Shown: positions 9,308 to 59,340 of the stretch, one piece after another
How positions within the stretch are numbered: position 1 is the first letter of the stretch
Layout of the letters: every line of letters starts with the position of its first letter
The notes under the pieces: model-generated
Told to the model about the DNA's origin: nothing
What the model saw: the letters and a program-made list of their open reading frames with translations, nothing else
Databases searched by the model: none
From: Candidatus Velesiimonas alkalicola
Lineage (GTDB): Bacteria; Omnitrophota; Gorgyraeia; Velesiimonadales; Velesiimonadaceae
Direction: 5' to 3'
Length of the DNA: 64,000 nt
Assembly (NCBI GenBank): GCA_013626165.1
Contig: NDHX01000005.1
Span: 26,875 to 90,874 of the forward strand
Translations under genes and position numbers: made by a program

Positions 9308-10281
9308 ATAAGTGTAAAATTAAGCCTCTGGAACAATATTAGAAAATGACACAACCCTTACTTAAAAACATTACAGCAACAAGGAAGTAAAAAAGATGTT
9401 ATCAGAAGCAGAAGCCACAGACTTATCCTTGCGCTCGACGGGGACAAGTATGCGCAGCGTATAATCTATTAAAACTATGAAGGGAAAAAGTGGTCGGAAG
9501 TGCAATTTTAAACTAAAAAGTAGAAACAGGTACCCACTTGGGGGTGTGGTGTTTGTGCTTGTCCGTCTGCGGCGTTGAAAATCTCGCCCTCGCCTCCTTC
9601 TTGCCTATGGTGCTTAAAACCTTGCCCATTTTTTGGGTGGGGAGCTTTGCCGATATTTGAAATTTTTTACAACAGCAAGTATTAATTTACTTATAATGCC
9701 AAGGTTTCATTTTTCAGTTGCTGGTGAGTTTGACAGACTTACCCCTGTTAAAGAACTTAAGATAATAAACAGATGTAGAACTTAAAAATGTGTATAAAAA
9801 ATACAGCAGTCTTGAAAACTGGAAATTGTTAGGATTAAAAACAAAGCATAAAAAATATTTTAGACAAGACAGATTATTATTAAATCTTTTTAGAAAATTT
9901 ATAAAAAATCTTTATCTGGCACATTTTATTGTGTAGAAATTTTAATAAATCCCGATGTAACAATTAAGGATTAAGCAGGATAATCTAATTCTCTTTGTAA
10001 ATGGTAGGAATTTTTTAGGTGAAAGTGGGAAAAAAGTTTCACCAGGGAGCATCAGGGTATCCAACAAAGCTGGGCCAGCTTATAGAGGGTATATGTCAAG
10101 CAGGCTTGTTTAGATGATAAAAAACAGCATTTTTTATGAAAGTAGAATGATAGAAAACCCTGTTTCTTTTAATTTATTCTCTAAGGGTTTATAGTGCTTT
10201 GCTTGTAAAAGATTTAATTTTTTTCAATAAAGACTTTATTTTTGATTTTGTTTCTTTTTATGGCAACCGTAGTTTTTGGCT

Positions 10282-26122: not shown

Positions 26123-26171
26123 GCACCAGGGCACCAGTGCACCAGGGCACCAGGGCACCAGGGCACCAGTT
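26121..26171. repeat. Tandem heptamer/octamer array GCACCAG(G/T), about 6.5 copies, starting at the ridA stop codon
   Basis: gagcaccagggcaccagtgcaccagggcaccagggcaccagggcaccagt, read directly. Confidence 0.85.
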
Positions 26172-27951: not shown

Positions 27952-28947
27952 ATGTCTATAAGGATTGGTTTAACTTACGATTTAAGGTCAGACTATATCT
28001 TAAAAAAGGAAGATCCTGAAGATCTAAATGCAGAGTTTGATCATGGACAGACGATAAATGCATTAAGCAAGGTTTTTACATCCGCTGGTTATAAGGTTGT
28101 AAGAATTGGAAATGTGAAAAACCTTCTTTCATCCATTGATAACCTTGGGGTGGACATTGTGTTTAATATAGCAGAAGGCTTGTGTGGAAGAAACAGGGAA
28201 TCGCAGGTGCCCATCCTGCTTGAAATGAGGGGCATTCCTTTTGTTGGTTCTGATGCCCTTACTCTGGGACTTACACTTGATAAGATGTTTGCAAAGAAGA
28301 TATTTATTGCCAATGATATCCCAACGCCTAAGTTTATCTCTGTTAAAAATCCCTGTAAGTTGGACGGCATAGACTTGAAATTTCCTATTATTGTAAAACC
28401 GAGATTTGAGGGGTCAAGTAAAGGGATAAACGATAATTCCATCTTTATAGATAGACAGGGTTTGGTAAAGCAATGTCAGTGGCTTATAGATACATATAAA
28501 CAGCCTGCTCTTGCAGAGGAGTTTATTGAAGGAAAAGAATTCACTGTTGTAATAATAGGAAACGATGATGCATGGGCTCTACCTGTTGTTCAGATTAAAA
28601 TAGACGGAGAACTTGAACTTGGGAACAGGTGTTATACATTTTCAAGAATACACTCAACCACGCTTGATTATGTTTGTCCTGCTCAAATATCATCTGAGAT
28701 GGAAGAGGACATCAAGAAGGTTGCCCTTGCTGCTTATCATTCTGTAGAGTGCAGAGACTTTGGAAGGGTTGATATCAGGCTTGATAAGGATAACCGTTTG
28801 TATGTGCTTGAGATTAATCCTCTTCCGAGTTTGTCTTCGCAGGATGTTTTTCCTGTTGTTGCAAAAGCAGCAGGATGTAGTTACGAGGATTTGATTATGA
28901 AGATATTGGATGAGGCATTGGAAAGATACAATATAAGGAGAATATGA
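27952..28947 (+). CDS. ATP-grasp ligase, D-alanine--D-alanine ligase-like (paralog 1)
   Basis: 331 aa with Ddl-like N-terminal, central and C-terminal ATP-grasp regions (PFVGSDALT, EEFIEGKEFTV, LEINPLP). Confidence 0.75.
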   Translation: MSIRIGLTYDLRSDYILKKEDPEDLNAEFDHGQTINALSKVFTSAGYKVVRIGNVKNLLSSIDNLGVDIVFNIAEGLCGRNRESQVPILLEMRGIPFVGSDALTLGLTLDKMFAKKIFIANDIPTPKFISVKNPCKLDGIDLKFPIIVKPRFEGSSKGINDNSIFIDRQGLVKQCQWLIDTYKQPALAEEFIEGKEFTVVIIGNDDAWALPVVQIKIDGELELGNRCYTFSRIHSTTLDYVCPAQISSEMEEDIKKVALAAYHSVECRDFGRVDIRLDKDNRLYVLEINPLPSLSSQDVFPVVAKAAGCSYEDLIMKILDEALERYNIRRI

Positions 28948-29999
28948 AAAGAAAAGTTGCGCTAGTATGCAATATAAAACACTATGATTCTACAAAACCA
29001 AAGGATTATGAATCGGAATTTGATTCTATAAAAACGGTTAATTCAATAGCAGAGGCACTAAAAGACGGAGGGAACAGGGTTGATGTTATGGAGGCAAACG
29101 GTGTTCTTCTTCCCCATCTTTTAAAGAAAAAGCCGGACATAGTTTTTAATATTTCAGAGGGGGTTGGCGGCTCCAGCAGAGAGGCGCAGGTTCCCTCTAT
29201 ACTTGAATTTCTCGGTATTCCATATACCGGCTCAGGTGTCCTTGCACTTGCGCTTGCACTTGATAAGGCTAAGTCAAAGAAAATATTTATCACAGAGGGA
29301 ATTCCAACCCCAAAATTTCAGGTTTTTACTCTCGCGGATGAAGCCCTTGATACTGGACTAAAATTTCCTTTAATAGTAAAACCCAATTGTGAAGGTTCGG
29401 CAAAGGGTATATCTGCAAAAAGTGTTGTTTGTAATGAAAAAGAGTTGCCTAACCGGGTAAGAGAAGTAATAGAAACATATAAACAGCCTGCCCTTGTTGA
29501 AGAGTTCATAGAGGGGGAAGAATTTACTGTTGGAGTTCTTGGAAACGGCCAGCCTTATGTGTTTCCGCCTATGTTGATAGATTTTTCAAAATGCAAGGCC
29601 GGCGGAGAATCATTTTATTCATGGAGGGTAAAGGAATACCAGGGTGATGAAAAACAATACCTCGTTCCCGAATTTGAATGCCCTGCAAGTATAACAAAAC
29701 AAGAGGAAAGAAAATTAAAAGAAGTGGCGCTAAAATCTCACCAGGCAATAGGATGTGTGGATATATCAAGGACAGATATTCGTTTAAGCAAGAATGGTGT
29801 TCCATATGTTCTTGAAATAAATCCGTTACCGGGGCTTGACCCTGATGAAAGTAATTTTACAAAGATAACAAATTCCTGCGGCATAAAATATAAGGATCTG
29901 ATAAATACAATATTGGAGCTTGCTTGTAAAAGGTATAACCTGACGGGCTCTGATAAGAAGGAGGAGGAGAAAATTGTACACAGACTACAGGCGGTGTGA
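28944..29999 (+). CDS. ATP-grasp ligase, D-alanine--D-alanine ligase-like (paralog 2)
   Basis: 351 aa, clearly paralogous to the upstream gene (shared DIVFNI(S/A)EG...RE(A/S)QVP...GIP(Y/F)(T/V)GS...IPTPKF, EEFIEGEEFTV, LEINPLPGL). ATGA overlap with the upstream stop. Confidence 0.75.
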   Translation: MKRKVALVCNIKHYDSTKPKDYESEFDSIKTVNSIAEALKDGGNRVDVMEANGVLLPHLLKKKPDIVFNISEGVGGSSREAQVPSILEFLGIPYTGSGVLALALALDKAKSKKIFITEGIPTPKFQVFTLADEALDTGLKFPLIVKPNCEGSAKGISAKSVVCNEKELPNRVREVIETYKQPALVEEFIEGEEFTVGVLGNGQPYVFPPMLIDFSKCKAGGESFYSWRVKEYQGDEKQYLVPEFECPASITKQEERKLKEVALKSHQAIGCVDISRTDIRLSKNGVPYVLEINPLPGLDPDESNFTKITNSCGIKYKDLINTILELACKRYNLTGSDKKEEEKIVHRLQAV

Positions 30000-35050: not shown

Positions 35051-35290
35051 ACAGAGCACCAGAGCACCAGTCACCAGAGCACCAGTTGCTCCTTAAGTTT
35101 CTAATGGGGCCTGCCCCGACTTGTCGGGGAGGGATGTCTTTTTCCATCCCCCAAAAAAAATTAAAAAAAAGTATACGAAAGATTAGAAAAGATTAGAAAA
35201 GGCTACAAAGGTCAGGTGCCCTGGTGCTCTGGTGCGCTGGTGCACTGGTGCATTTGAAATTAGTGGGATTGGGGTTGTGCAGCTGTCTTA
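35051..35290. repeat. Composite repeat. A GCACCAG array (35051-35088) is paired with an inverted CTGGTGC array (35213-35250) around a ~125-bp core. The core holds hairpins (CCCCGAC-TTG-TCGGGG) and a GATTAGAAAA x2 tandem. It is followed by the 35-bp block shared with 1226-1262.
   Basis: All seen directly. The terminal ctggtgcatttgaaattagtgggattggggttgtgca is identical to the copy near 1226. Confidence 0.8.
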
Positions 35291-43893: not shown

Positions 43894-44026
43894 CTTATAC
43901 ACTTCATTGACTATTTTTAGTAGGCGTGCTATCTTGAGATATAATAACGTTTAAGTTCGGCCGTTGAGAAGAAAGATTTAATATGAAAAAACGTATACAG
44001 TTTCAGGGCACACTTATATTCTTATG

Positions 44027-44077
44027 TGTTGACTAACGATACATTAAGTTGTATACTTAATGTATCGTTAGTCAACA
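44027..44077. repeat. Perfect 23-bp inverted repeat (TGTTGACTAACGATACATTAAGT / ACTTAATGTATCGTTAGTCAACA) with a 5-nt loop
   Basis: Seen directly. It overlaps the 3' end of the truncated transposase fragment. Confidence 0.9.
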
Positions 44078-44292
44078 TTTATGAAGTTTAGAATCTGCTC
44101 TTCTATTTCTTCTGGCACTCTATTGGGCATCCTGGGAGCTCTTCTTGTCCTTGATCTTAAACCTTCATCTCCTTCTTTATCTCTTCTCTTCTTCCACTTA
44201 TAGAACCACTTTCTGCTCACTCCATATCTTTTGCAGAGGGAGGTTATTGGTTCCCGGTTTTTATCTGCCTCTTCGAATATCCTCATTCTCAT
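44068..44292 (-). pseudogene. Truncated transposase (N-terminal HTH portion only, IS481/IS3-like)
   Basis: 74 aa: ITSLCKRYGVSRKWFYKWKKRRDKEGDEGLRSRTRRAPRMPNRVPEEIEEQIL matches the N-terminal HTH of rve-type transposases. No catalytic domain follows. Confidence 0.5.
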
Positions 44293-50199: not shown

Positions 50200-50386
50200 G
50201 AATAGAAATGTCAAATATCAAATATCAAATATTAAATATCATTACACATAAGGTTCTGTGATGTGGAGGTGTCCTGTGTATTATATAGGAGACCTTTTTA
50301 TTAAATCTTTATAATTTAAAATTTATTCAAAATTGGAAATTAAAAATTCCTCACCTCTACTACCTACTATATTTTCGGAGGGGTGG

Positions 50387-50468
50387 CAGAGTGGACGAAT
50401 GCGGCGGTCTCGAAAACCGTTATCCGTCTTAAAACGGATCGGGGGTTCAAATCCCTTCCCCTCCGCCA
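50387..50468 (+). tRNA. tRNA-Ser (anticodon CGA). It marks the boundary of the downstream R-M island.
   Basis: GGAGGGG TG GCA GAGTGGACGAA TGC ... anticodon loop CTCGAAA, a long variable arm, T-arm GGGGGTTCAAATCCCTTC and 3' CCGCCA. Confidence 0.8.
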
Positions 50469-50655
50469 AAGAACCCCGAAGGAGAAACTTCGTTTCCCTA
50501 CGGGGCAGGCCTGAAAAAATGCTTGCCCCGTTAAATTTGCGAAGTAAATTTGTTCGGGGTCGGCTCGAACTTTATTTTGGCCAGAAGCGAGCTTTTCTTT
50601 ATTTTCATTCTAATATCTCTATGCTAACTATAGTATGTAGAACTAAAAATAGCAA

Positions 50656-50892
50656 GTGTATATAATAGAAGTATCTAATGTGAAACGAGAAATACTATTA
50701 AAGTTTGGTAATAAAGTCCGTGGACGACGGCTTAAATTAGGTTTATCTCAGGAAGAGTTATCTTCTCGTGCCGGCGTTCATAGAACATACATCGGAATGA
50801 TTGAAAGGGCAGAAAAAAATATAACACTCGAGAATATTGAAAAAATCGCTAAGGCACTAGAAATCTCGTTAGACAACCTTATGAAATTTTAA
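50656..50892 (+). CDS. Controller (C) protein, XRE-family HTH, of R-M system A (possible alternative GTG start at 50680)
   Basis: 78 aa with LKLGLSQEELSSRAGVHRTYIGMIERAEKNITLENIEKIAKALEISLDNL matching the C-protein family. The ACTATAGT palindrome just upstream (50627-50634) is C-box-like. Confidence 0.7.
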   Translation: MYIIEVSNVKREILLKFGNKVRGRRLKLGLSQEELSSRAGVHRTYIGMIERAEKNITLENIEKIAKALEISLDNLMKF

Positions 50893-50902
50893 AAATGCTT
50901 TT

Positions 50903-51748
50903 ATGGAAAAGAGACATCGACAACATCTAAAAACACGAAAAAGTCCGCCCTTTAACCTTTTATCCAAGGGACAAGAGGATACGGCAAAAGTGGCTTCGAA
51001 TATTGTGTGGGAAACAATACTTAAAAAATACCCACACTTAGATTTTAATAATCTTGAGACACTGGGTCTTAAAGACTTGAAAGCTGGATATGCTATTGCG
51101 TATATAAACCGAGGCACAAAATTAGTCGGTTTGCCAGAAAGAAAACCCAAAGAATTACAAGCCTTCGACTCCGCAGACGGAATTAAACCTGATGGCGGTA
51201 TATTTTTTGTTCAATCAAAAAAAGATAATTTTAACCATATTATTGGCGCGCTTGAAGTAAAACATCAAGGAGAATATGACGGATATACGCCAATTAGTGA
51301 CGCCGATTGGAAGAAGAAAGGCGGCGACCCTTCAATTCCAAGAGAGAAAAGACCGCCTCAAGCACAAGGTAATGCGATAGAGAGATTTGCTAAAAACGCC
51401 AATGCCATAAAAACACTAACCAGTTTTTATGGCTACAATCCTTATATTGTTTTTACTGAAGGGTTTGACTTTTTCCTTAAAGATGATTTCAAGATTTTTG
51501 AAAAACAACCGCATTCTTCCCGTTTCAAAAACAGAGATTCTTCGATTCTTATGAGGTTGATAGCTGGAAATGATTGGCTTCCGCTCAATAGGGTATATGT
51601 TGATTGCTTGCAGCACGGTAATACCCAAATCTGCCCAGCGACAATTTTTGCTCGAATGTCAAAATGGAGCGCAGAGGAAATCGCGAAAATTATGTTAGTA
51701 GTTATCGATAAATCTCTTGCGCGTCTACGCAAACTTGATGAGATTTAA
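50903..51748 (+). CDS. EcoRI-family type II restriction endonuclease
   Basis: 281 aa with DGIKPDGGIFFV, EVKHQGE and AQGNAIERFAKN, which correspond to EcoRI motifs (SIKPDGGI, EAKHQG, AAGNAIER). Confidence 0.75.
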   Translation: MEKRHRQHLKTRKSPPFNLLSKGQEDTAKVASNIVWETILKKYPHLDFNNLETLGLKDLKAGYAIAYINRGTKLVGLPERKPKELQAFDSADGIKPDGGIFFVQSKKDNFNHIIGALEVKHQGEYDGYTPISDADWKKKGGDPSIPREKRPPQAQGNAIERFAKNANAIKTLTSFYGYNPYIVFTEGFDFFLKDDFKIFEKQPHSSRFKNRDSSILMRLIAGNDWLPLNRVYVDCLQHGNTQICPATIFARMSKWSAEEIAKIMLVVIDKSLARLRKLDEI

Positions 51749-52944
51749 GCAGTTTTCTTTTCAAGAATCCAAAGCAATTCTTTGACTTTTATATCCCTAT
51801 CGCGCAGATTTCTTGAGCCGCGATAAGTGTTATAATCTTGCTCCATTAGTTCCCATTTCCCGTATTGCGAGAGAATTTTTTTGAAGACATCAATTGGAAT
51901 TATTCCCTCGTCGTTATAGGAAATCGCAATAAATTTTGCCCGAGTACCGGCCAAGAGTTGATCCATCGCATCTTCGGCAATCTTTCTTTTGTTATACGCC
52001 GATCTGTTCCATTCTTTTGCTATACCGCTTACACCATCTTGTATTCCCACTGGCTTACCGCCATTGATAATATTAAGCATAAAGTAATTCGAGCCATAAG
52101 GATGTTGATTATAGGGTGGGTCATAATAGACTAAATCAAAGAATGGAATATTTTTGTCTTTCACCAGTTCATTTACATCTCGTTTGCAAACAAACACAGG
52201 ACACTCAAAATCAGAAAATTCAGGCACATCAAGCGAAATTTCTTTTTTAATACGAGAAAGAGCGTTTTCCCCCCGTCCGCCAAAATGTCCATTGCCGTTG
52301 TGCTTATGAAATCCCTTAAACACGCCTGATGTGTTTGTGTGGATAGACGCTTTTACCAAAAGCGAGGCGAGACAAAAATGTTTATATTTTCTTGGCACTT
52401 CATCAATCAGTTCCCGTAAGTTATCTATAATTTTTGCGTTTTTGTTTGTGTAAAATACTCTTTCTCCTTGTTGGACATTATTATCATTTTTTGGAGCATA
52501 ATTTTTTTCTATAAATCCAATATCATTAGCTTTAAGTTTTAATTTATTTTCGTTGAGCCAATTTATATATTTTTCTAATTCTTTTATATCTATTTCTGAT
52601 TTATTAGCAAGATAAGCATGATTTAATGTTTCGGCGTAATCTTCCAAATCGTTTACATGAAGTTCGCTCGCAAATGCTTTTAACAAGCGAGCCGCCGCAC
52701 CACTTCCGACGAAGCCATCTAGTATAACCATTTTTTGCTTCCCTAACTTTTCCCTGATTTTCAGAAATCCTTTATACAGAAAAGGCAGTAGCCGTCGTTT
52801 ATTGCCAATATAGGTAATAAGATGGGAAGTAAAAAATGGGCTCTGTAAGTCTAAATTTTTTACAGGGTCTGAAGGAAACAAATTCAATTTCGATTGTGGA
52901 TAATGTTTCGATGGCATATTTTTTCTGATAACTTTAGTATACAC
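51745..52944 (-). CDS. Dam-like (D12-class, alpha) N6-adenine DNA methyltransferase of R-M system A
   Basis: 399 aa: YIGNKRRLLPFL...ILDGFVGSGAAARLL...NDLED...DPPY. The order matches Dam/EcoRV-type MTases. Convergent with, and 4 bp overlapping, the REase gene. Confidence 0.75.
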   Translation of the reverse strand: MYTKVIRKNMPSKHYPQSKLNLFPSDPVKNLDLQSPFFTSHLITYIGNKRRLLPFLYKGFLKIREKLGKQKMVILDGFVGSGAAARLLKAFASELHVNDLEDYAETLNHAYLANKSEIDIKELEKYINWLNENKLKLKANDIGFIEKNYAPKNDNNVQQGERVFYTNKNAKIIDNLRELIDEVPRKYKHFCLASLLVKASIHTNTSGVFKGFHKHNGNGHFGGRGENALSRIKKEISLDVPEFSDFECPVFVCKRDVNELVKDKNIPFFDLVYYDPPYNQHPYGSNYFMLNIINGGKPVGIQDGVSGIAKEWNRSAYNKRKIAEDAMDQLLAGTRAKFIAISYNDEGIIPIDVFKKILSQYGKWELMEQDYNTYRGSRNLRDRDIKVKELLWILEKKTA

Positions 52945-52989: not shown

Positions 52990-53250
52990 AATTTGCCGCC
53001 AAAGAAAAACTTGTCATGCCTGAGGCAGATCCGCCTCTGGCGGAAAATCGTCCTTCTCGCCTCCGCTTCCCACCTACGCACTGCTTCGGTCGGGCAGGCA
53101 AGGCGAGGCAGGCAGAAAAGGGTTTGGTCTTTGCTTTTCTGCCCGGCGGAGCCAATCTGTCACAAAATCAGTTCGGATATTTTCAAACAGGCACCGCCAG
53201 TTGGTAAAAGCGAAGTTTGGCTCGCCACCCGTCCCGCCCTCTAAGCCCAT
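52990..53250. repeat. GC-rich structured repeat block (copy 1 of a family also at 59000-59340, with a degenerate copy near 9560-9620)
   Basis: Shares a ~60-bp core CCGCTTCCC(A/G)CCT...CTTCGGTCGGGCAGGCAAGGCGAGGC and an AAAAGGCACCGCCA motif with 59115-59290. Contains a TCCGCC-TCT-GGCGGA hairpin. Confidence 0.8.
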
Positions 53251-53462
53251 CACAAAAATTGGTTGCTTTATTGTTTTTAATATTTCTGAAATAAATTCTA
53301 TAAAACTTTATCATGAGCATAGAGGGCGGGATGAATTTTTTGTCTTTGTCCCGCAAAGCAGAACGTCAGAAGCGGGCTTTTCTTTTTCTTGATTGTTTTG
53401 TTTTTATTTGTTATCATATACTTGTATAGAATTATAGCAGAACAATTTAATGTTATCAAATT

Positions 53463-53675
53463 ATGGAAAATAATCAAGAAAATAAACTGGGAAAAAAGAT
53501 AAAATCATTTCGGCTTAAACTTGAACTTTCACAGGACGAATTTGCCAGAAAAGCTGATATTCCTTACACCACGCTAACTAAAATTGAAACCGGCGTTATT
53601 AAGAAGCCATCGGTTTTTGTTATGGCAAAAATCGCCAAAGCACTGGGTGTTTCGATTGAGGATTTAATAAAATAA
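53463..53675 (+). CDS. Controller-type HTH protein (XRE family) of R-M system B
   Basis: 70 aa with LSQDEFARKADIPYTTLTKIETGVIKKPSVFVMAKIAKALGVSIEDLIK. The last ~50 nt are identical to gene 56183-56389. Confidence 0.7.
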   Translation: MENNQENKLGKKIKSFRLKLELSQDEFARKADIPYTTLTKIETGVIKKPSVFVMAKIAKALGVSIEDLIK

Positions 53676-53679
53676 AACT

Positions 53680-54348
53680 ATGAAAAATTCATTTTTAAGA
53701 GCAATCTCAAAAACATTTCGAGCTTACAATACTTTCGGTGCTAGAAGTAATAAAAAATTAATTCCTGTACATAAATGGTTTGCCGAGGTCATAGAAAATA
53801 AATTAGGGAAAGGATATTCGGTTAAAAGTTTAGGGAAAGACGGAGAATTTAAAATAGATGGAAAATACTATCCAAAAACACTAGACATTTCTATTTTTAA
53901 AAATCAAAGAATAATTACGACAATTAGTTTTAAGTTTGTTACCTCAAATTATAAACAGAACTCAAATAATTATTTCGAAAACTTACTTGGAGAAACCGCA
54001 AATATAAGACGAGTAAATGTTGGCTTCGCCCATTTTCTAGTTTTGCGAGCTCGCACCCCCTATTATGATAAAAATAAAGGCAGCCTGAGAGGAAAAGAAA
54101 AGAAGATAGAAATTTTAAACGAAAATGATTTAGTAAAATATGTTAAACTTTTTAATGATTTGGATTTCCCGCACAAACCAGAAGTGTTAGGTATGGCTAT
54201 AATAGATTTTGATAAACGAGGATGTGCTTATTTTGAAAACTTAAAAAATTTAGGGCTGACAGAAGAAACAAAAAATATTTTAGAAAGTCAATTATCAGTA
54301 GAAAATTTCATTGGGAAAGTAATAGCGTTGTGTAAATTAAAATCCTAG
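53680..54348 (+). CDS. Putative type II restriction endonuclease of system B (family not recognised by eye)
   Basis: 222 aa ORF. It starts 5 nt after the C gene stop and ends 4 nt before the MTase start. No similarity to housekeeping families is recognised. Confidence 0.45.
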   Translation: MKNSFLRAISKTFRAYNTFGARSNKKLIPVHKWFAEVIENKLGKGYSVKSLGKDGEFKIDGKYYPKTLDISIFKNQRIITTISFKFVTSNYKQNSNNYFENLLGETANIRRVNVGFAHFLVLRARTPYYDKNKGSLRGKEKKIEILNENDLVKYVKLFNDLDFPHKPEVLGMAIIDFDKRGCAYFENLKNLGLTEETKNILESQLSVENFIGKVIALCKLKS

Positions 54349-54351
54349 ACT

Positions 54352-55905
54352 ATGAAAATTAGCGAAAAAAAATTAAATGGCATTGTTTATACTCCTCAAT
54401 GGATTGTTGAGTTAATTTTGGACAATCTCGATTATAAAAATAATATTTACCAAAAAAAGATTATTGATCCGGCTTGCGGAGATGGGGCATTTTTAAGCGA
54501 AGTGCTTGTTAGATTTCTTAAAGATGCTAAAAAAGCAAAAATAGAAAATAAGATTATAAAAGAAAAAATAGAAAACAATATATTCGGCTTTGATATCGAC
54601 GAAAATGCTATAAAAAAATGTATTTTAATACTGGAAGGTATTGCCAAAAAATATGACTTAAAAAATATTAAATGGAATATCTTAAAGACGGATAGTTTAG
54701 ATAAATTTTTCGTTAGTAGATTTTTTGGTTCATTCGATTTCGTTGTTGGCAATCCACCATATATTAGGATTCAACATCTTGGTCTAAAAAGAAGGGAAAA
54801 AATTCAGAATGAATGGCAATTATGTAAAAAGGGGTCAACGGACATTTTTATTACCTTTTTTGAGCTCGGTTATTATTTGTTAAAAAAAACCGGGAAATTG
54901 GGTTATATTGCGCCAAACACTTATCTTAAAACAAAAGCAGGCGAAGGTTTAAGAAACTTTATAAAATTCCACCAAATATTAAAAACACTGATTGATTTTG
55001 AGCATAATCAATTATTTGATAACGCTACGACTTATTCTTTGATAACTATTTTAGATAAAAACCACAAGAAAAACACCTTTTTTTTATTTAAGGGCAATAA
55101 AGAAAATATAAATTATATTGATGAGATAAATATTGAAAATTTAAACAAAGATAATTGGATTTTAACTTCAAACGATATTCTTGAAAAATTAAATAAAATT
55201 GAAAAAAGAGGATTGCATCTGAATGAAATTGCAAAAATTCACGTCGGGATAACCACGCTTGCAGATGATTATTATATTTTTAAGGACCCTGTAATCGATG
55301 GCGATTTCGCAGAAATTAAATTAAAAGATGGAAGAGTATTCCAAGTCGAACGGGAAATTTTAAAACCGATAATAAAAGCCTCTGTGCTTAAAAATCCTAA
55401 TGAGAACCAAAATCGTTTTATAATTTTCCCTTATAAAAAAGTGAACAGCAGGCATTCTATTATTCCAGAAAAGGATCTGAAAGAAAAATATCCTTTTACA
55501 TATAAATATTTTGAGGCAATAAAAGAAGTTCTTGATAATCGCGATAAAGGAAAACCGAATCCTGTTGATTGGTATGCATTTGGAAGGTCACAGGGTCTTG
55601 ATACTTCATTTGGTAAAAAAATATTAACATCGCCAATAAATCTAAAACCAAATTTTATTGTTTGGGAAAAAGAAGAATATACTTTTTATGCCGGATATTG
55701 CATTAAATTCGATGGAGATCTAAAACTTTTAGCTAAACATCTAAACTCAAAAGATATGGAGTTTTACATTAACCATATTAGTAGAAACTATCAAAATAAT
55801 TATAAATCTTTCGCTAAAAGTTTTATCGAGAGATTTGGTATTGATGATTTAAATTTGGTAAATGGGCAGAAACAAAGACAACGATTATTGATATTTCAAC
55901 ACTAA
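54352..55905 (+). CDS. Gamma-class N6-adenine DNA methyltransferase (Eco57I/TaqI-like, NPPY) with C-terminal target-recognition domain
   Basis: 517 aa with motif X GIVYTP, motif I IIDPACGDGAFL and motif IV GNPPYIRIQ. Confidence 0.8.
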   Translation: MKISEKKLNGIVYTPQWIVELILDNLDYKNNIYQKKIIDPACGDGAFLSEVLVRFLKDAKKAKIENKIIKEKIENNIFGFDIDENAIKKCILILEGIAKKYDLKNIKWNILKTDSLDKFFVSRFFGSFDFVVGNPPYIRIQHLGLKRREKIQNEWQLCKKGSTDIFITFFELGYYLLKKTGKLGYIAPNTYLKTKAGEGLRNFIKFHQILKTLIDFEHNQLFDNATTYSLITILDKNHKKNTFFLFKGNKENINYIDEINIENLNKDNWILTSNDILEKLNKIEKRGLHLNEIAKIHVGITTLADDYYIFKDPVIDGDFAEIKLKDGRVFQVEREILKPIIKASVLKNPNENQNRFIIFPYKKVNSRHSIIPEKDLKEKYPFTYKYFEAIKEVLDNRDKGKPNPVDWYAFGRSQGLDTSFGKKILTSPINLKPNFIVWEKEEYTFYAGYCIKFDGDLKLLAKHLNSKDMEFYINHISRNYQNNYKSFAKSFIERFGIDDLNLVNGQKQRQRLLIFQH

Positions 55906-56182
55906 AAATTGTGTAAAGTTTTAAAAATATTTTTTAAATAAATATGACACCAGAATCGGCAGGGCCGAACAATCCGCCAAAGGCGGATTAGAAAAACTTG
56001 AAATCGTCGCCTCGCTGTGCGAGGCGCAAACCGCCGAAAAACCTGAAAAAATGTCGGCTCAAACTTTATTTTGGCCAGAAGCAGGCTTTTTCTCATTTTT
56101 TGTTTGATTGTTTTTATAATATTTGTTATCATTATATTGAAAAGATAATATATCACTTACATACTATCAAATTATTGAAAAT

Positions 56183-56389
56183 ATGGCAACAGAAATCAAC
56201 ATAGGCGAAAATATAAAGAAATACCGAAATAAACAAGGATTATCTCAAGAGGATTTTGCTAAGAAATCAGGCGTAAAATATACTACCCTGACTAAAATTG
56301 AGAGCAATGTAATAAAAAAGCCGTCCGTGCTTGTTATGGCGAAAATCGCCAAAGCACTGGGTGTTTCGATTGAGGATTTAATAAAATAA
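56183..56389 (+). CDS. Controller-type HTH protein (XRE family) of R-M system C
   Basis: 68 aa with LSQEDFAKKSGVKYTTLTKIESNVIKKPSVLVMAKIAKALGVSIEDLIK. Its C-terminal DNA is identical to gene 53463-53675. Confidence 0.7.
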   Translation: MATEINIGENIKKYRNKQGLSQEDFAKKSGVKYTTLTKIESNVIKKPSVLVMAKIAKALGVSIEDLIK

Positions 56390-56394
56390 AAAAT

Positions 56395-57027
56395 ATGTCA
56401 AGTAAAATAATAGAAATTTTTAACGATGAAAAGTTGATAGATAAAATTAAGAATCGCCTGCCACATTTATTTCAGTTAGCGGAATTAGAAAGCTCAAGAG
56501 CTGGGAAAATTGGAATGGAGGTCGGTTCTTTGCGCGAAAAGATTATTACTGCACTGCTTATTTATAAATTTGGGAAAGAAAATGTTGAGACAGAAATCCC
56601 CATAACCGAATCAGAAATTGATGCTAACCTTTTTGGAGCCCCCATCTCTATTAAAACAATAACCGGTACTAGATTCGGAGGAGTTAAACTAGTTTGGACG
56701 GTTGATGCCAAAAAAGCAGACGAATTTCGTAAAAATTATGAGCCCAGTTACGATATATTGTTTATACAAATTAATTGGGGAAGCGTAGGGGGATTTTACT
56801 ATATTCCATTGGAATCTCAGCGAAGGTTGTTCGATCGAATAGGGAGAGAAAATTATATTCAACTTCCAAAACCGGGAACAAACCCGAGAGGAGCGGAGAT
56901 TACTAAAGAAGCGCTATCAAGTTTAGTTAGAGACAAAGATGCCAAGACCATAGAAATACTATGGAAAAAGACAACAATAGAGTTTAACCCATATAAAAGA
57001 TGGGTAGATTACTGGAAAGAAGATTAG
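56395..57027 (+). CDS. Putative type II restriction endonuclease of system C
   Basis: 210 aa ORF between the C gene and the MTase gene in the same tight operon layout (5-nt and 1-nt spacers). Confidence 0.45.
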   Translation: MSSKIIEIFNDEKLIDKIKNRLPHLFQLAELESSRAGKIGMEVGSLREKIITALLIYKFGKENVETEIPITESEIDANLFGAPISIKTITGTRFGGVKLVWTVDAKKADEFRKNYEPSYDILFIQINWGSVGGFYYIPLESQRRLFDRIGRENYIQLPKPGTNPRGAEITKEALSSLVRDKDAKTIEILWKKTTIEFNPYKRWVDYWKED

Positions 57028-57028
57028 T

Positions 57029-57949
57029 ATGATATACCATAATTATAAAAGAAAAAATGGAACGCAAACCAGCGCCTTTGGTGCACCAGGTCGAATTAAC
57101 CATGACTCGTCAAAATTTTATAACAGCAAGCTTTATGAGGGGTTAAATAATGGAAAAGATGTTGAGTATGTTGAAAATCCAATTGAACCGCAAAATATAA
57201 ACAAAGTTTTTTGCAAGAGCAGTGAGGCAATGATAGAACTTCCAGATAACAGTGTTCATTTGATGGTCACTTCACCACCTTATAATGTTGGTAAAATGTA
57301 TGATGAAAATTTATCCCTCAAAGAATATAGAGAGTTGCTAAAACGAGTATTCAAAGAAACATACAGGGTTTTGGTCCCCGGCGGTAGAGCTTGTATAAAT
57401 ATAGCAAATTTAGGCAGAAAACCATATTTGCCACTTCACAGTTATATCATAGAAGATATGCACGCTCTTGGTTTTTTGATGAGGGGCGAGTTGCTTTGGG
57501 ACAAAGGAAGTAGCGCAAGTTCTTCAACAGCTTGGGGAACTTATCTAAAAGCAAACAATCCGGTATTGCGGGATGTCCATGAATATATTCTTGTTTTTTG
57601 TAAAGATACATTCACTCGTTTAAATCCGCATAAAAGAAAAAGTACCATTTCAAAAGAAGAATTTTTAGAATTTACAAAGAGTGTTTGGAAATTTTCCGCA
57701 GAGCGAGCTTCAAAAGTAGGCCACCCCGCTCCTTTTCCAGTTGAACTACCTTATCGCTTAATCCAACTTTATACTTTTGAAGGCGATGTTGTCCTTGACC
57801 CATTTGTTGGCGCCGGAACTACTTGCATTGCGGCACTAAAAACCAATAGAAAATATGTGGGTTATGATATTGATAAACAATATTGTGATTTGGCGGAACG
57901 AAGAATAAAACAATTTTTACAAGAACAAACGACATTATTTTCGAAATAA
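57029..57949 (+). CDS. Beta-class DNA methyltransferase (N4-cytosine/N6-adenine, SPPY motif; MethyltransfD12/N6_N4_Mtase family)
   Basis: 306 aa with motif IV VTSPPYNVGK upstream of motif I VVLDPFVGAGTT, the beta-class order (IV before I). Confidence 0.8.
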   Translation: MIYHNYKRKNGTQTSAFGAPGRINHDSSKFYNSKLYEGLNNGKDVEYVENPIEPQNINKVFCKSSEAMIELPDNSVHLMVTSPPYNVGKMYDENLSLKEYRELLKRVFKETYRVLVPGGRACINIANLGRKPYLPLHSYIIEDMHALGFLMRGELLWDKGSSASSSTAWGTYLKANNPVLRDVHEYILVFCKDTFTRLNPHKRKSTISKEEFLEFTKSVWKFSAERASKVGHPAPFPVELPYRLIQLYTFEGDVVLDPFVGAGTTCIAALKTNRKYVGYDIDKQYCDLAERRIKQFLQEQTTLFSK

Positions 57950-57965
57950 ACCAAACGTTCAAACT

Positions 57966-58019
57966 ATGGCGAAAATTGCCAAAGCGTTGGGTGTTTCGAT
58001 TGAGGAGTTATTAAAATGA
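57966..58019 (+). pseudogene. Remnant of a fourth controller gene: only the last 17 codons (MAKIAKALGVSIEELLK*) survive, overlapping the start of the downstream ORF
   Basis: DNA atggcgaaaattgccaaagcgttgggtgtttcgattgaggagttattaaaatga is near-identical to the 3' ends of the C genes at 53463-53675 and 56183-56389. Its TGA overlaps the ATG at 58016. Confidence 0.7.
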
Positions 58020-58915
58020 AAACTATAAAAAGCAAAACACTCGCAATATTTGGAGTAGTAACTTGGATACTTTCGGTTGCGTCTTTGGCTAAAGATCTCG
58101 CTGGAAATTATACGGCTCCAACAGCTTTAATTGTGGTGTCGGCATTGGCAACGCTGGTATTCACGATTATGGCAGTAGTCCGATTATGGAAACCACAAAA
58201 AGTTACTGCCGTTTTGTTTCTTGTATTGTCTTTAGTTTCTCTTGTATACGTTTCGGCTCCAATCAAAATAGTTACCTTCGTTTTGTTTATTTGGGTAATA
58301 TCGCTTCTTTGGGTAATGGGGAAACACGAGGGTCTCGCCAAGAAACTTCAAAAAGATTCTGGACTTACTGATGAAGAATTTTCTGCAATGCTAAAAGAAA
58401 AACAGAAAGGCAATGATAAAGCGGTAGAGAAAATACTTGCTTCAGCGCAAGAACGCGCTAAGGCAAAATATAAAGAAGTTACAGGCGTTAATCCAAAAAG
58501 CATTGTCCCAGAAATCGGCAAGGAGATTTCATGGGCAGATATTGTAAATCATACATTCCGCGTTTTGGATTTTGACAGAAACGAAACAACTATTGATGAA
58601 AATAATCAGGTAAAAGCCAAGAGCCGGCTCCAACCGTACGGGTATTTGCTCGCAGAATCGCCAATTTTGAATAATCGTGTAAAATTGCCTATTATTCATC
58701 GTGATGATTTTCTCCTTGCCGCAAGCGTATTTGATGAACCAAAATTGGCGGCTATGGTTAAAGACGAAGAATTGCTTGTAGTTTACTCGCCAAAACATTT
58801 AGGGCCAAAAGGGTTATCCGGTAGTCCCCACCACGTTTTACATTACGCGATTACGCCTCACGGGACATTAGACGCTTACTACTCGAAAAACAATGATATA
58901 TATGGCGAGACCTGA
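58016..58915 (+). CDS. Membrane protein of unknown function (3-4 N-terminal TM helices plus a soluble C-terminal domain), occupying the R/M position of a fourth cassette
   Basis: 299 aa with a hydrophobic N-terminus (IFGVVTWILSVASLA..., ALIVVSALATLVFTIMAVV, VLFLVLSLVSLVYV, VTFVLFIWVISLLWV) and a charged middle region. No recognised family. Confidence 0.55.
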   Translation: MKTIKSKTLAIFGVVTWILSVASLAKDLAGNYTAPTALIVVSALATLVFTIMAVVRLWKPQKVTAVLFLVLSLVSLVYVSAPIKIVTFVLFIWVISLLWVMGKHEGLAKKLQKDSGLTDEEFSAMLKEKQKGNDKAVEKILASAQERAKAKYKEVTGVNPKSIVPEIGKEISWADIVNHTFRVLDFDRNETTIDENNQVKAKSRLQPYGYLLAESPILNNRVKLPIIHRDDFLLAASVFDEPKLAAMVKDEELLVVYSPKHLGPKGLSGSPHHVLHYAITPHGTLDAYYSKNNDIYGET

Positions 58916-58999
58916 ACCACAGAAGTTAGTTGGACAATTTGTATATCAAGGTGAGATAAAAGTGCAGATAAATCCTGAACAGGAATTTTAAGGATTTGC

Positions 59000-59340
59000 C
59001 GCCAAAGAGGAAAATCATTTATGATTTTCCTTGCGGGCTACCGCCCGCGAAAAACTTGAAATCGTCCCCCGAAGTAGTCCGCCTTGGGCGGACACTACGG
59101 GGCAGGCTTTTCGCTTCCGCTTCCCGCCTTCACTTTTCAGCTTCGGTCGGGCAGGCAAGGCGAGGCGGGTGGAAAGGGGGTTCGGGGGGAAGGAATTTTT
59201 GCCCGCCCGAGCGGAAAAGTTTTTTAGAAATCAATTTCCGGATTTTCGTTAAAATAGGTTCGAATTTTAACCAAAAGGCACCGCCAATTTTCAGAATTCG
59301 GATTTTGGGCAATAAGTTACCTCGCCCCACCAGAGAAACT
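59000..59340. repeat. GC-rich structured repeat block (copy 2) closing the island
   Basis: Shares a conserved core with 53067-53130, a GAAAAACTTGAAATCGTC motif with 55985-56010, and the hairpin TCCGCC-TTG-GGCGGA. The ORF-track genes starting MPPK(R)K inside both copies are artefacts of the repeat. Confidence 0.8.

Follow-up and report, generated by a model that had tools for sequence, protein, structure and literature searches.

Repeat blocks of a tRNA-Ser island in Candidatus Velesiimonas alkalicola as probable right-end modules of a tRNA-targeting family of large serine recombinase elements

The stretch of DNA analysed here, called the window, covers 64,000 nucleotides of contig NDHX01000005.1 (positions 26,875 to 90,874 of the forward strand, assembly GCA_013626165.1) from Candidatus Velesiimonas alkalicola. 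It contains an island of four cassettes behind one tRNA-Ser gene, three of them being restriction-modification (R-M) systems, and within this island lie two GC-rich repeat blocks, block A (52990-53199) and block B (58994-59286). These blocks are probably the conserved right-end modules of two tandem cargo elements that lack a recombinase gene and belong to a tRNA-targeting large serine recombinase (LSR) family. This family is very widespread and, in the literature searched, undescribed: the searches returned neither a description of these elements nor a paper naming the source assemblies.

Two homologous blocks in a tRNA-Ser island

Blocks A and B are homologous. The regions 52990-53250 and 58990-59340 align over ~260-350 nt, with 73% column identity and several indels. 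They share the conserved core proposed in the initial annotation, in the form of an identical 27-nt sequence GCTTCGGTCGGGCAGGCAAGGCGAGGC at 53083-53109 and 59140-59166 (a 21-mer from this core has 2 matches in the window, with 0 expected from shuffles), and they end with a common tail, ...AGGCACCGCCA, at 53172-53199 and 59259-59286 (0 expected). A GAAAA(ACTTGAA)ATCGTC motif was also correctly reported, and is found at 53041-53052, 55991-56008, and 59049-59066. The blocks are indeed richer in GC (0.556 for A and 0.507 for B) than the island (0.355), and their position at cassette boundaries is borne out by the layout of open reading frames (ORFs) and by Pfam. The degenerate relative that had been placed at 9575-9615 was not recovered by a profile hidden Markov model built from 43 family members (cut-off E<=10), which matches block A (E = 5e-16), block B (4e-9), a junction at 55974 (4e-5), and nothing else in the window. 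The best local alignment of 9500-9720 with block A scores 26, a value equalled by unrelated segments of the window, and the local alignment score of the 9575 region with block B is that of the shuffle mean.

Further copies beyond this genome were sought, and hundreds were found in other genomes. The related loci (designated L001 and so on) were retrieved via exact matches, either to the 21-nt core in a species-representative genome set or to a 19-nt S anchor in groundwater-type metagenomes. Their comparison resolves each block into a piece called S, a string of optional GC-rich palindromic hairpins, and a 29-nt tail. S is a 27-36 nt copy of codons ~29-40 of an LSR gene. In what follows, S and S' are recombinase-derived pieces, hp is a 17-nt hairpin, E is the GC-rich body, and Td is the left-end arm; P is used of the sequence found upstream of the recombinase start, and P arm and P' of element-side half-sites. 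With these names, the island can be described from left to right as follows.

50377-50468, plus strand: tRNA-Ser(cga), proposed integration target, whose 3' end ...CCTCCGCCA is read as the chromosomal arm (ARAGORN, Rfam; same junction logic in related loci)
50469-50600, plus strand: degenerate left end of element 1, AAGAAC..CTGAAAAAATG..TCGGCTCGAACTTTAT..CCAGAAGCGAGCTTTTC (read from the sequence)
50656-50892, plus strand: cargo 1, XRE regulator (ORF, Pfam)
50903-51748, plus strand: cargo 1, EcoRI-like endonuclease (ORF, Pfam)
51745-52944, minus strand: cargo 1, D12-class N6-adenine methyltransferase (ORF, Pfam)
52990-53052, plus strand: S of block A, GCCGCCAAAGAAAAACTTG ... AAATCGTC, copy of recombinase codons ~29-40 (KEFAAKEKLEIV)
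53053-53170, plus strand: body of block A (E), nested GC-rich palindromes with stem GCAGAAAAG/CTTTTCTGC and the core at 53083-53109 (alignments, fold)
53171-53199, plus strand: tail of block A, GTTCGGATATTTTCAAACAGGCACCGCCA, proposed element-side arm (P), mimicking tRNA-Ser with 5 additional nt
53200-53390, plus strand: left end of element 2, a Td-type arm GTTGGTAAAAGCGAAGTTTGGCTCGCC... followed by the P module CAGAAGCGGGCTTTTC (homology to Td-P)
53463-53675, plus strand: cargo 2, XRE (ORF, Pfam)
53680-54348, plus strand: cargo 2, 222-aa protein, presumed endonuclease (ORF)
54352-55905, plus strand: cargo 2, Eco57I/N6-type methyltransferase (ORF, Pfam)
55958-56099, plus strand: cassette junction J, which follows cassette 2 and lacks the GC-rich body
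56183-56389, plus strand: cargo 3, XRE (Pfam)
56395-57027, plus strand: cargo 3, ThaI endonuclease (Pfam)
57029-57949, plus strand: cargo 3, N4/N6 methyltransferase (Pfam)
57944-58010, plus strand: cargo 4, 3' remnant of a fourth XRE gene (repeat family D1, tblastn fragment)
58016-58915, plus strand: cargo 4, 299-aa membrane protein (ORF)
58994-59066, plus strand: S of block B, TTTGCCGCCAAAGAG ... GAAAAACTTGAAATCGTC, with two hairpins inserted at 59009-59049 (sequence comparison)
59067-59107, plus strand: optional hairpin H1, CCCCGAAGTAGTCCGCCTTGGGCGGACACTACGGGGCAGGC (family comparison)
59108-59257, plus strand: body of block B (E), core at 59140-59166, stem GGCGGG/CCCGCC (alignment)
59258-59286, plus strand: tail of block B, GTTCGAATTTTAACCAAAAGGCACCGCCA, outer boundary of the island (the profile match stops at 59285)

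Host DNA resumes at 59287, with a P-type ATPase gene at 59687. At the other extremity, the left end of element 1 (50469-50600) is an S'/recombinase-3'/P module into which two hairpins are inserted, and it is joined straight to the CCA of the tRNA; a BLAST match to the Sp consensus lies at 50559-50600, and this left end forms a direct repeat (D12) with 56053-56099. In block A, S is interrupted by two small hairpins (53014-53044), one of them including TCCGCCTCTGGCGGA. The segment that follows block A (53200-53390), which carries an AT-rich insert within a hairpin loop, is homologous to the Td-P regions of L004, L081, and L119, so block A would be the right end of element 1. The window can thus be read as two tandem elements without a recombinase: element 1 would end at block A and element 2 would start at 53200, the latter comprising cassettes 2-4 joined internally by an S-hp-S' junction.

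This junction J is composed of S (55974-56008, with an inserted hairpin TCCGCCAAAGGCGGA), hp (GCCTCGCTGTGCGAGGC, 56009-56025), S' (56026-56045), and a last segment (56046-56099) made of a recombinase-3' fragment, corresponding to the last ~26 nt of the ORF region, and P. It has the appearance of an internally deleted recombinase gene, and the same module is found in L026, L010/L054, L158, and L169. Each of the junctions A, J, and B opens with CCGCCAAAG, that is, the letters of the tRNA 3' end plus AAG. The parts of the module also clarify an earlier claim, according to which a TCCGCC-N3-GGCGGA hairpin is present three times: there are exactly three occurrences (53030, 55973, and 59078; 0 expected), but they are not copies of one element, being optional small hairpins at three module positions (S in block A, S in the 55974 junction, and H1 in block B).

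Regarding the cargo, the 222-aa protein of cassette 2 has no Pfam or NCBIfam match. The remnant that opens cassette 4 (57944-58051) is a third partial copy of an XRE 3' end, and overlaps the end of the methyltransferase gene of the ThaI system. Extended -10 promoter-like sites (TTGATT-17-TATCAT with TG) are present upstream of XRE2 and XRE3, at 53389-53417 and 56104-56132, and both are kept in L119 and L081 ahead of their XRE genes.

The probable right-end module and the recombinase gene of its family

In the family consensus, S (AGAATTTGCCGCCAAAGAAAAACTTGAAATCGTC) is followed by ~110 nt of GC-rich sequence and then by the tail (GTTCGGATATTTTCAAACAGACACCGCCA), and the whole module measures 170-330 nt, bounded by CCGCCA. 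The tail resembles the end of tRNA-Ser from T-loop to CCA, plus 5 extra bases. Conservation of E halts directly after CACCG(C), beyond which lies either unrelated host DNA or Td (GTTRGGAAATGAAGTC...). The exact 21-nt core is carried by 44 genome loci, mostly from metagenome-assembled genomes (MAGs) of Patescibacteria/Candidate Phyla Radiation (CPR), other carriers being a 2.1-Mb Zixibacteria contig, a 172-kb Thermodesulfobacteriota contig, and Saganbacteria; the S anchor adds at least 120 metagenome loci. The flanks of all core copies are colinear with blocks A and B. The 27-nt core itself is one of the optional GC-rich hairpins and is missing from short family members, and in metagenome loci the same S is joined to other versions of the GC-rich part. 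All complete copies that were examined have S, or S' when inverted, attached to their left side, and both pieces derive from the recombinase. The module sits at the far end of XRE-led cargo cassettes beside tRNA genes, and most of the fetched loci have a tRNA gene nearby.

Within the body, individual hairpins occupy fixed positions, at which some copies have them and others do not, and the stems of H1 and of the two S-insert hairpins vary yet stay complementary. H1, which is missing from most copies, is found in L002, L008, L020, L033, and L060 with compensatory changes in the inner stem, its stem variants being TCCGCC/GGCGGA, AACGC/GCGTT, and TCCCGC/GCGGGA. The two-hairpin S insert of block A also occurs, with other stem sequences, in L032, L031, L043, L074, and L127. 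Stems of at least 8 bp were counted upstream of 24 of 63 tails, as against 6 of 63 in shuffles, a tally modestly above chance and too noisy for E1. We conclude that the body consists of strand-symmetric DNA palindromes under some structural constraint, with a putative role as insulator, accessory synapsis structure, or selfish insertions. A protein-coding reading of the blocks was rejected, since block A and the consensus carry the identical core in different reading frames, and the indels are not multiples of three.

The origin of S is best seen in L044, in which AAAGAATTTGCCGCCAAAGAAAAACTTGAAATCGTC encodes the KEFAAKEKLEIV of a 490-aa protein whose gene adjoins a tRNA-Ser gene. This protein harbors Resolvase, Recombinase, and Zn_ribbon_recom domains and is thus an LSR. 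After S, the ORF continues with the 17-nt hp (encoding ASLSEA) and then with the 20-nt S' (QTAKEPG), the place of hp being taken in blocks A and B by the GC-rich E. Among LSRs, the family recombinase falls in a clade of its own: its nearest NCBIfam families, XisF, CcrB, and CcrA, are all far below cut-off, and matches to the SPbeta and A118 integrases in PDB are weak. The family is very large, since 7952 of the 8000 recombinase clusters that were scored reach E<=1e-20. When recombinase genes of only 60-65% identity are compared, S-hp-S' ranks with the best-conserved nucleotide windows. The hp hairpin is clearly under selection at the nucleic-acid level, its 7-bp stem being kept via compensatory changes at three pairs (CG<->TA; GC<->CG<->TA) among 25 distinct recombinase sequences, partly at synonymous positions. 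It spans codons ~41-46 (ASLSEA/ASFQEA), at the very point of attachment of S to E or S' (e.g. L044 2290-2306, minus strand).

A full-length recombinase gene is present in 32 loci, and it always converges on a tRNA gene (Ser, Ala, Val, Leu, or Glu) or on an E tail. In most of them, the ORF crosses the junction into the antisense strand of the tRNA (e.g. L044 946-975), so that the C-terminal tail of the protein would differ between the integrated and the excised state; other junction-crossing examples are L072 9521-9544, L126 4311-4313, and L139 99-123. An element with a split integrase, as in SSV1, was considered and dropped, because the ORFs of these 32 loci are full-length in the integrated state and merely their last codons cross the junction.

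Upstream of the recombinase, the canonical order is P, inverted Td, inverted E, S', recombinase-3' fragment, P, XRE, cargo, S, and E. In all 14 inverted E pairs (14/14) the tails point outward, and the arms are 77-100% identical, a range that resembles the identity between loci, for which reason concerted evolution of the arms was not retained. Layouts in which the recombinase unit is co-directional with the cargo are always degenerate, as in L026 (S-hp-S'-3' fragment), L017 (Td-P-XRE), and L032 (Td-P-N-terminus-S-E). Such layouts could derive from a flipped recombinase unit that lost the DNA lying between direct repeats (S', P, or S), and junction J of the window may have arisen through the same kind of deletion.

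tRNA genes as proposed targets and the logic of the junctions

In the 32 occupied tRNA genes, which represent 8 specificities, CCA is followed by a left end of the NNNAGGAAA type, and this left end also follows E tails at tandem junctions. In the Ser family, for instance, tRNA...CCA|GTTRGGAAATG has its counterpart in E...CCA|GTTRGGAAATG. The type of tail moreover tracks the neighbouring tRNA: tails in ..ACACCGCCA go with Ser, those in ..AGACCACCA with Ala/Val, and those in ..GCACCA with Leu/Arg. Accordingly matched pairs are seen for tRNA-Ala/Val (...CCACCA|GACAGGAAATTGCAAG, with tails ...AGACCACCA|GACAGGAAATTGCAAG) and for tRNA-Leu/Arg (...GCACCA|GTAAGGAA..., with tails ...GCACCA|GTAAGGAAAAGTCAA). 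In tRNA-Ser genes without an element there is neither an encoded CCA nor Td, and E|host junctions diverge after CCG(C). By sequence comparison, the junctions obey the logic of attB x attP giving attL + attR. The tail is read as the element-side arm (P), the tRNA 3' end as the chromosomal arm (B), and Td as the other element arm (P'); E|host would then be attR and E|Td the junction of two tandem elements, the end of block B being attR-like.

The spacing within the arms points in the same direction. From the T-loop-like GTTCGRAY to the 3' end, there are 16 nt in tRNAs and 21 nt in the E tails examined, the latter being counted in tails matched under a fixed-spacing search pattern. Rutherford et al. 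(PMC3783163) showed for serine integrases that, relative to attP, attB carries the zinc-ribbon-domain motif 5 bp nearer to its centre, and the 5-bp offset of the tail matches this geometry. The zinc-ribbon domain presumably binds the GTTCGRAY motif. The junction of L097 forms a near-symmetric site of ~51 bp, GTTCGAGC-N17-G-N17-GCTCGAAC, whose centre on CCGCC places the crossover at CG or GC.

Evidence for mobility comes from cassette 3. Region 56026-57946 of the window is 91% identical at the nucleotide level to L119 4410-6330, and 56074-58019 is 92% identical to L081 7880-9831. The homology with L119 begins exactly at S', to the left of which L119 carries an inverted E adjoining an intact recombinase gene; the homology with L081 begins at P, preceded in L081 by another E family and then by Td; in the window the left neighbour of the ThaI cassette is S-hp. 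With three different left flanks, the same XRE-ThaI R-M cargo is thus present in three module contexts, and on sequence comparison one cassette is horizontally shared between the window and two unrelated metagenome contigs. The cargo of 20 other loci is miscellaneous, including DpnII R-M, SAM methyltransferases, a Na/Ca exchanger, purine nucleoside phosphorylase, LD-carboxypeptidase, TfoX_N, DUF1905, glyoxalase, and multicopper oxidase. One entire Patescibacteria contig (L001 1-1764) is a single XRE cassette with genes for DUF1905, TfoX_N, and a third small protein, between 120-nt perfectly inverted E ends. A phage or plasmid origin was rejected for lack of matches in IMG/VR, a phage collection, or PLSDB.

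Assemblies fragment beside the tRNA gene, and the module is one cause of this. Other assemblies of the source organism have the same arrangement as the window or break inside the blocks. An assembly break, an N-gap, or a switch from block A to block B inside the repeat is seen at L045 13990-14011, at L049 1794-1931, and at the contig ends of L046/L047.

Several other repeats were recorded in the window. Five copies of a 7-nt tandem repeat, AAATATC, lie at 50206-50241, between a CPBP protease gene and the tRNA-Ser gene. Arrays of 8-nt tandem repeats (GCACCAGG / CTGGTGCT) are found at 26123-26169, 35052-35086, 35215-35252, and 1149-1199, with 37-nt inverted copies 9 kb apart (26131-26167 and 35215-35251, 95% complementary). 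A near-perfect 31-nt inverted repeat with a 5-nt spacer (90% complementary) occupies 44019-44085, near HicA/HicB-type toxin-antitoxin genes according to the annotation of L045. Finally, the 79-nt stretches 28486-28564 and 29469-29547, which are 983 nt apart and 80% identical, probably belong to adjacent paralogous genes.

Competing explanations, known systems, and implications

In the explanation that we favour, the LSR of the family would insert elements at the extreme 3' end of tRNA genes, by a crossover within the CC[G/C]CCA common to element and tRNA. S is read as a relic of the recombinase gene of the family, derived from its 5' part, and the tail would be the functional part of the module, a half-site (P arm) bound by the recombinase. 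Of the roles initially envisaged for the blocks, that of recombination site and cassette boundary is thus the one supported, with the tRNA-like tails probably acting as the element-side arm of a serine-recombinase att site. The anatomy of the module, the family membership, the link with tRNA genes and with the LSR gene, the logic of the junctions, the 5-bp offset, and the horizontal sharing of one cassette follow from sequence comparison. The LSR would act on these sites, the array would have been built by successive insertions behind the tRNA, and the palindromic body would be an accessory or insulating structure rather than the crossover site. The LSR gene of the 32 related loci is missing from the window, so the copies found there would be non-autonomous, either mobilised in trans or now fixed.

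A number of observations weigh against this explanation. No family recombinase is found in the 64-kb window, the single weak match being the zinc ribbon of PriA, which bears on activity at this locus. The tRNA junction of the window (tRNA|AAGAAC...) is of the S' type and not of the Td type. There is little dyad symmetry between the E tail and the common Td arm, L097 excepted, and the right arm on the chromosome side (B') is unconserved, so that the enzyme would have to accept any sequence there. No circular forms were found among the contigs, L001 having merely 120-nt inverted ends, and no syntenic empty site was found for the window locus; where the upstream gene has its nearest homologue (46% identity), the tRNA-Ser is absent. 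The model does not account for S ahead of E at every right end, and gives no reason for the S' and recombinase-3' fragment at the left borders of cassettes, for the E/Td inverted pairs around the recombinase and first cassette, or for the retention of palindromes in the body. Lastly, the invariance of the core and of S arises partly by construction from the exact-match retrieval, which does not apply to the conservation of the surrounding sequence, and the taxonomic labels, and hence the breadth of the family, come from MAG bins.

According to a second account, which seems rather unlikely, the cassette-exchange sites of an integron-like platform would be formed by the blocks in combination with S, hp, and S'. 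The crossover would take place at the hairpin inside the recombinase ORF, and cassettes (S'...cargo...S) would excise as S-hp-S' circles and re-insert at the head of E. Three of the four arm combinations it foresees have been seen (S|hp|S', S|E(+), and E(-)|S'), S-hp-S' stands between adjacent cassettes in the window (55974-56045) as well as in L026, L010, L158, and L169, and L032, with a tRNA, the recombinase N-terminus, S, and E but no cargo, resembles an empty state. The compensatory changes that keep the 7-bp stem of hp at three pairs in 25 recombinase sequences, the strong conservation of S-hp-S' between recombinase genes, and the start of the L119/window cassette homology exactly at S' also speak for it. 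However, the empty site E(-)|E(+) that it predicts occurs in 0 of 48 core-containing copies, the degenerate layouts may equally derive from deletions between direct repeats, S-hp-S' lacks the dyad symmetry of serine-recombinase sites, and a second enzyme is not encoded. A kindred proposal, which we regard as similarly doubtful, places a nested-palindrome scaffold (hairpin arm, E, and Td) around the serine recombinase gene, with hp and S/S' as a second recombination system. XRE-led cassettes would be captured, inverted, and exchanged on it, and it would amount, with the same limited probability, to a serine-recombinase cassette platform that is widespread in CPR and crosses phyla.

The two remaining options of the initial annotation fare less well. 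That the blocks encode a structured non-coding RNA, be it a small RNA, a stabiliser in the 3' untranslated region, or a processing signal resembling a tRNA and co-transcribed with the cassette, is very improbable. Their richness in GC within AT-rich DNA, the several hairpins whose positions are fixed while their stem sequences differ, the tRNA-like end of the tail (...GCCA), and the constant U.G pairs predicted in stem 1 on the plus strand would suit an RNA. Block B indeed folds better than its shuffles (z = -3.4), but its minus strand folds equally well (z = -4.0), and block A reaches z values of only -1.9 and -1.0 on the plus and minus strands, respectively. Among 43 copies, the mean difference between plus and minus strands is -0.9 +/- 4.8 kcal/mol (22/43, p = 0.26), which gives no strand bias. 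RNAalifold on 27 E1 copies found 2 of 29 pairs double-changed and a covariation term of ~0, with the low diversity of E1 limiting the power of this test. Rfam, at gathering thresholds and at E<=5, matched tRNAs only and nothing in the blocks, neither a promoter nor a canonical (intrinsic) terminator was found within the blocks, and the T-stem equivalent of the tail is unpaired. It is very improbable that the blocks are selfish palindromic repeats, akin to repetitive extragenic palindromes (REP) or miniature inverted-repeat transposable elements (MITE), piling up in intergenic DNA of the island independently of the recombinase. The family is spread over several phyla, and hairpins (H1, the two S-insert hairpins, the core loop, and CCTGCCCGCC...GGCGGGG) are present or absent in otherwise near-identical copies; this REP-like behaviour is confined, however, to the internal hairpins of the module. 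Full copies number only two in the 64 kb of the window, both of them within the island, complete copies examined are always tied to S or S', with a tRNA gene near most fetched loci, there are no target-site duplications, and the two ends do not form terminal inverted repeats. The module was never free-standing in the fetched loci, although these were retrieved through its own sequences.

Returning to LSR elements inserted at tRNA genes, several known systems offer points of comparison. Staphylococcal cassette chromosome (SCC) elements, with their CcrAB/CcrC LSRs, are cassettes at the 3' end of one gene, rlmH, that form tandem composite arrays, and these arrays include recombinase-less cassettes keeping only the boundary repeats. 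The stacking of LSR cassettes at the 3' end of a gene is common to both, and the named families nearest to the recombinase include CcrB and CcrA. The present family, by contrast, targets the 3' end of tRNA genes and occurs in CPR and other uncultured phyla; its boundary module is structured and much larger, and XRE leads every cassette. Kobayashi and co-workers reportedly described R-M units of Helicobacter bracketed by long direct repeats, an 'insertion with long target duplication'. R-M genes likewise lie between direct repeats of at least 100 nt in the island studied here, but these repeats are a family-wide terminal module, which is also found with non-R-M cargo in hundreds of genomes and is tied to a recombinase and to tRNA genes. 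With integron attC sites, the blocks share an imperfect palindrome at the 3' end of small accessory-gene cassettes that are arrayed beside a fixed site and carry mixed cargo. They are, however, 2-4 times longer than attC (57-141 bp) and end in a tRNA mimic. An attC identity was rejected, as the R''/R' GTTRRRY cores (RYYYAAC ... GTTRRRY) are absent and the cassettes have their own promoter-like site and XRE. No IntI-type tyrosine recombinase was noticed beside the arrays in the window or in the loci examined, in which no systematic screen for it was made, the associated enzyme being a serine recombinase.

Another comparison is with the LSR integrative elements, such as A118/LI, SPbeta SprA, and phiC31, with which the family shares the Resolvase, Recombinase, and Zn-ribbon domains and the attL/attR logic. 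A 5-bp element-side shift of the distal motif is common to both (PMC3783163), and one near-symmetric junction of ~51 bp is known here. Unlike phage-type LSR elements, those of the present family are tiny (1-3 kb of cargo) and non-phage by database matches, are aimed at the final bases of many different tRNA genes, the chromosomal right arm being unconserved, and have a recombinase ORF that crosses the att site and a right end consisting of ~150 nt of palindromes and a recombinase gene fragment. The tycheposons of Prochlorococcus are also small cargo elements with a site-specific integrase, tRNA targets, tandem arrays, and a part in island remodelling; most have a lineage-specific, inward-facing tyrosine recombinase and a minority an LSR, and tycheposons often carry a replication module (bioRxiv 10.1101/2020.12.28.424599). 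Here the LSR faces outward across the junction, no replication genes were seen, and the ends carry the S-E module.

If the favoured explanation is true, the module accounts for the breaking of assemblies of these genomes beside tRNA genes. Sub-lineages would have been retargeted to at least 8 tRNA types by altering the short tRNA-mimic tail with the 5-bp offset kept fixed, and the family would bear on attP/attB discrimination and on the design of programmable integrases. The S/S' pieces at cassette borders, the covarying hp, and the inverted E/Td pairs could point to an additional mechanism of cassette exchange. More broadly, one recognisable DNA module would mark thousands of small cargo elements that move accessory genes, with gene flow between CPR and unrelated phyla (Zixibacteria, Thermodesulfobacteriota, the Omnitrophota-like organism of the window, and others). 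Few mobile elements have been described for CPR, and these elements would supply a concrete vehicle for horizontal transfer.

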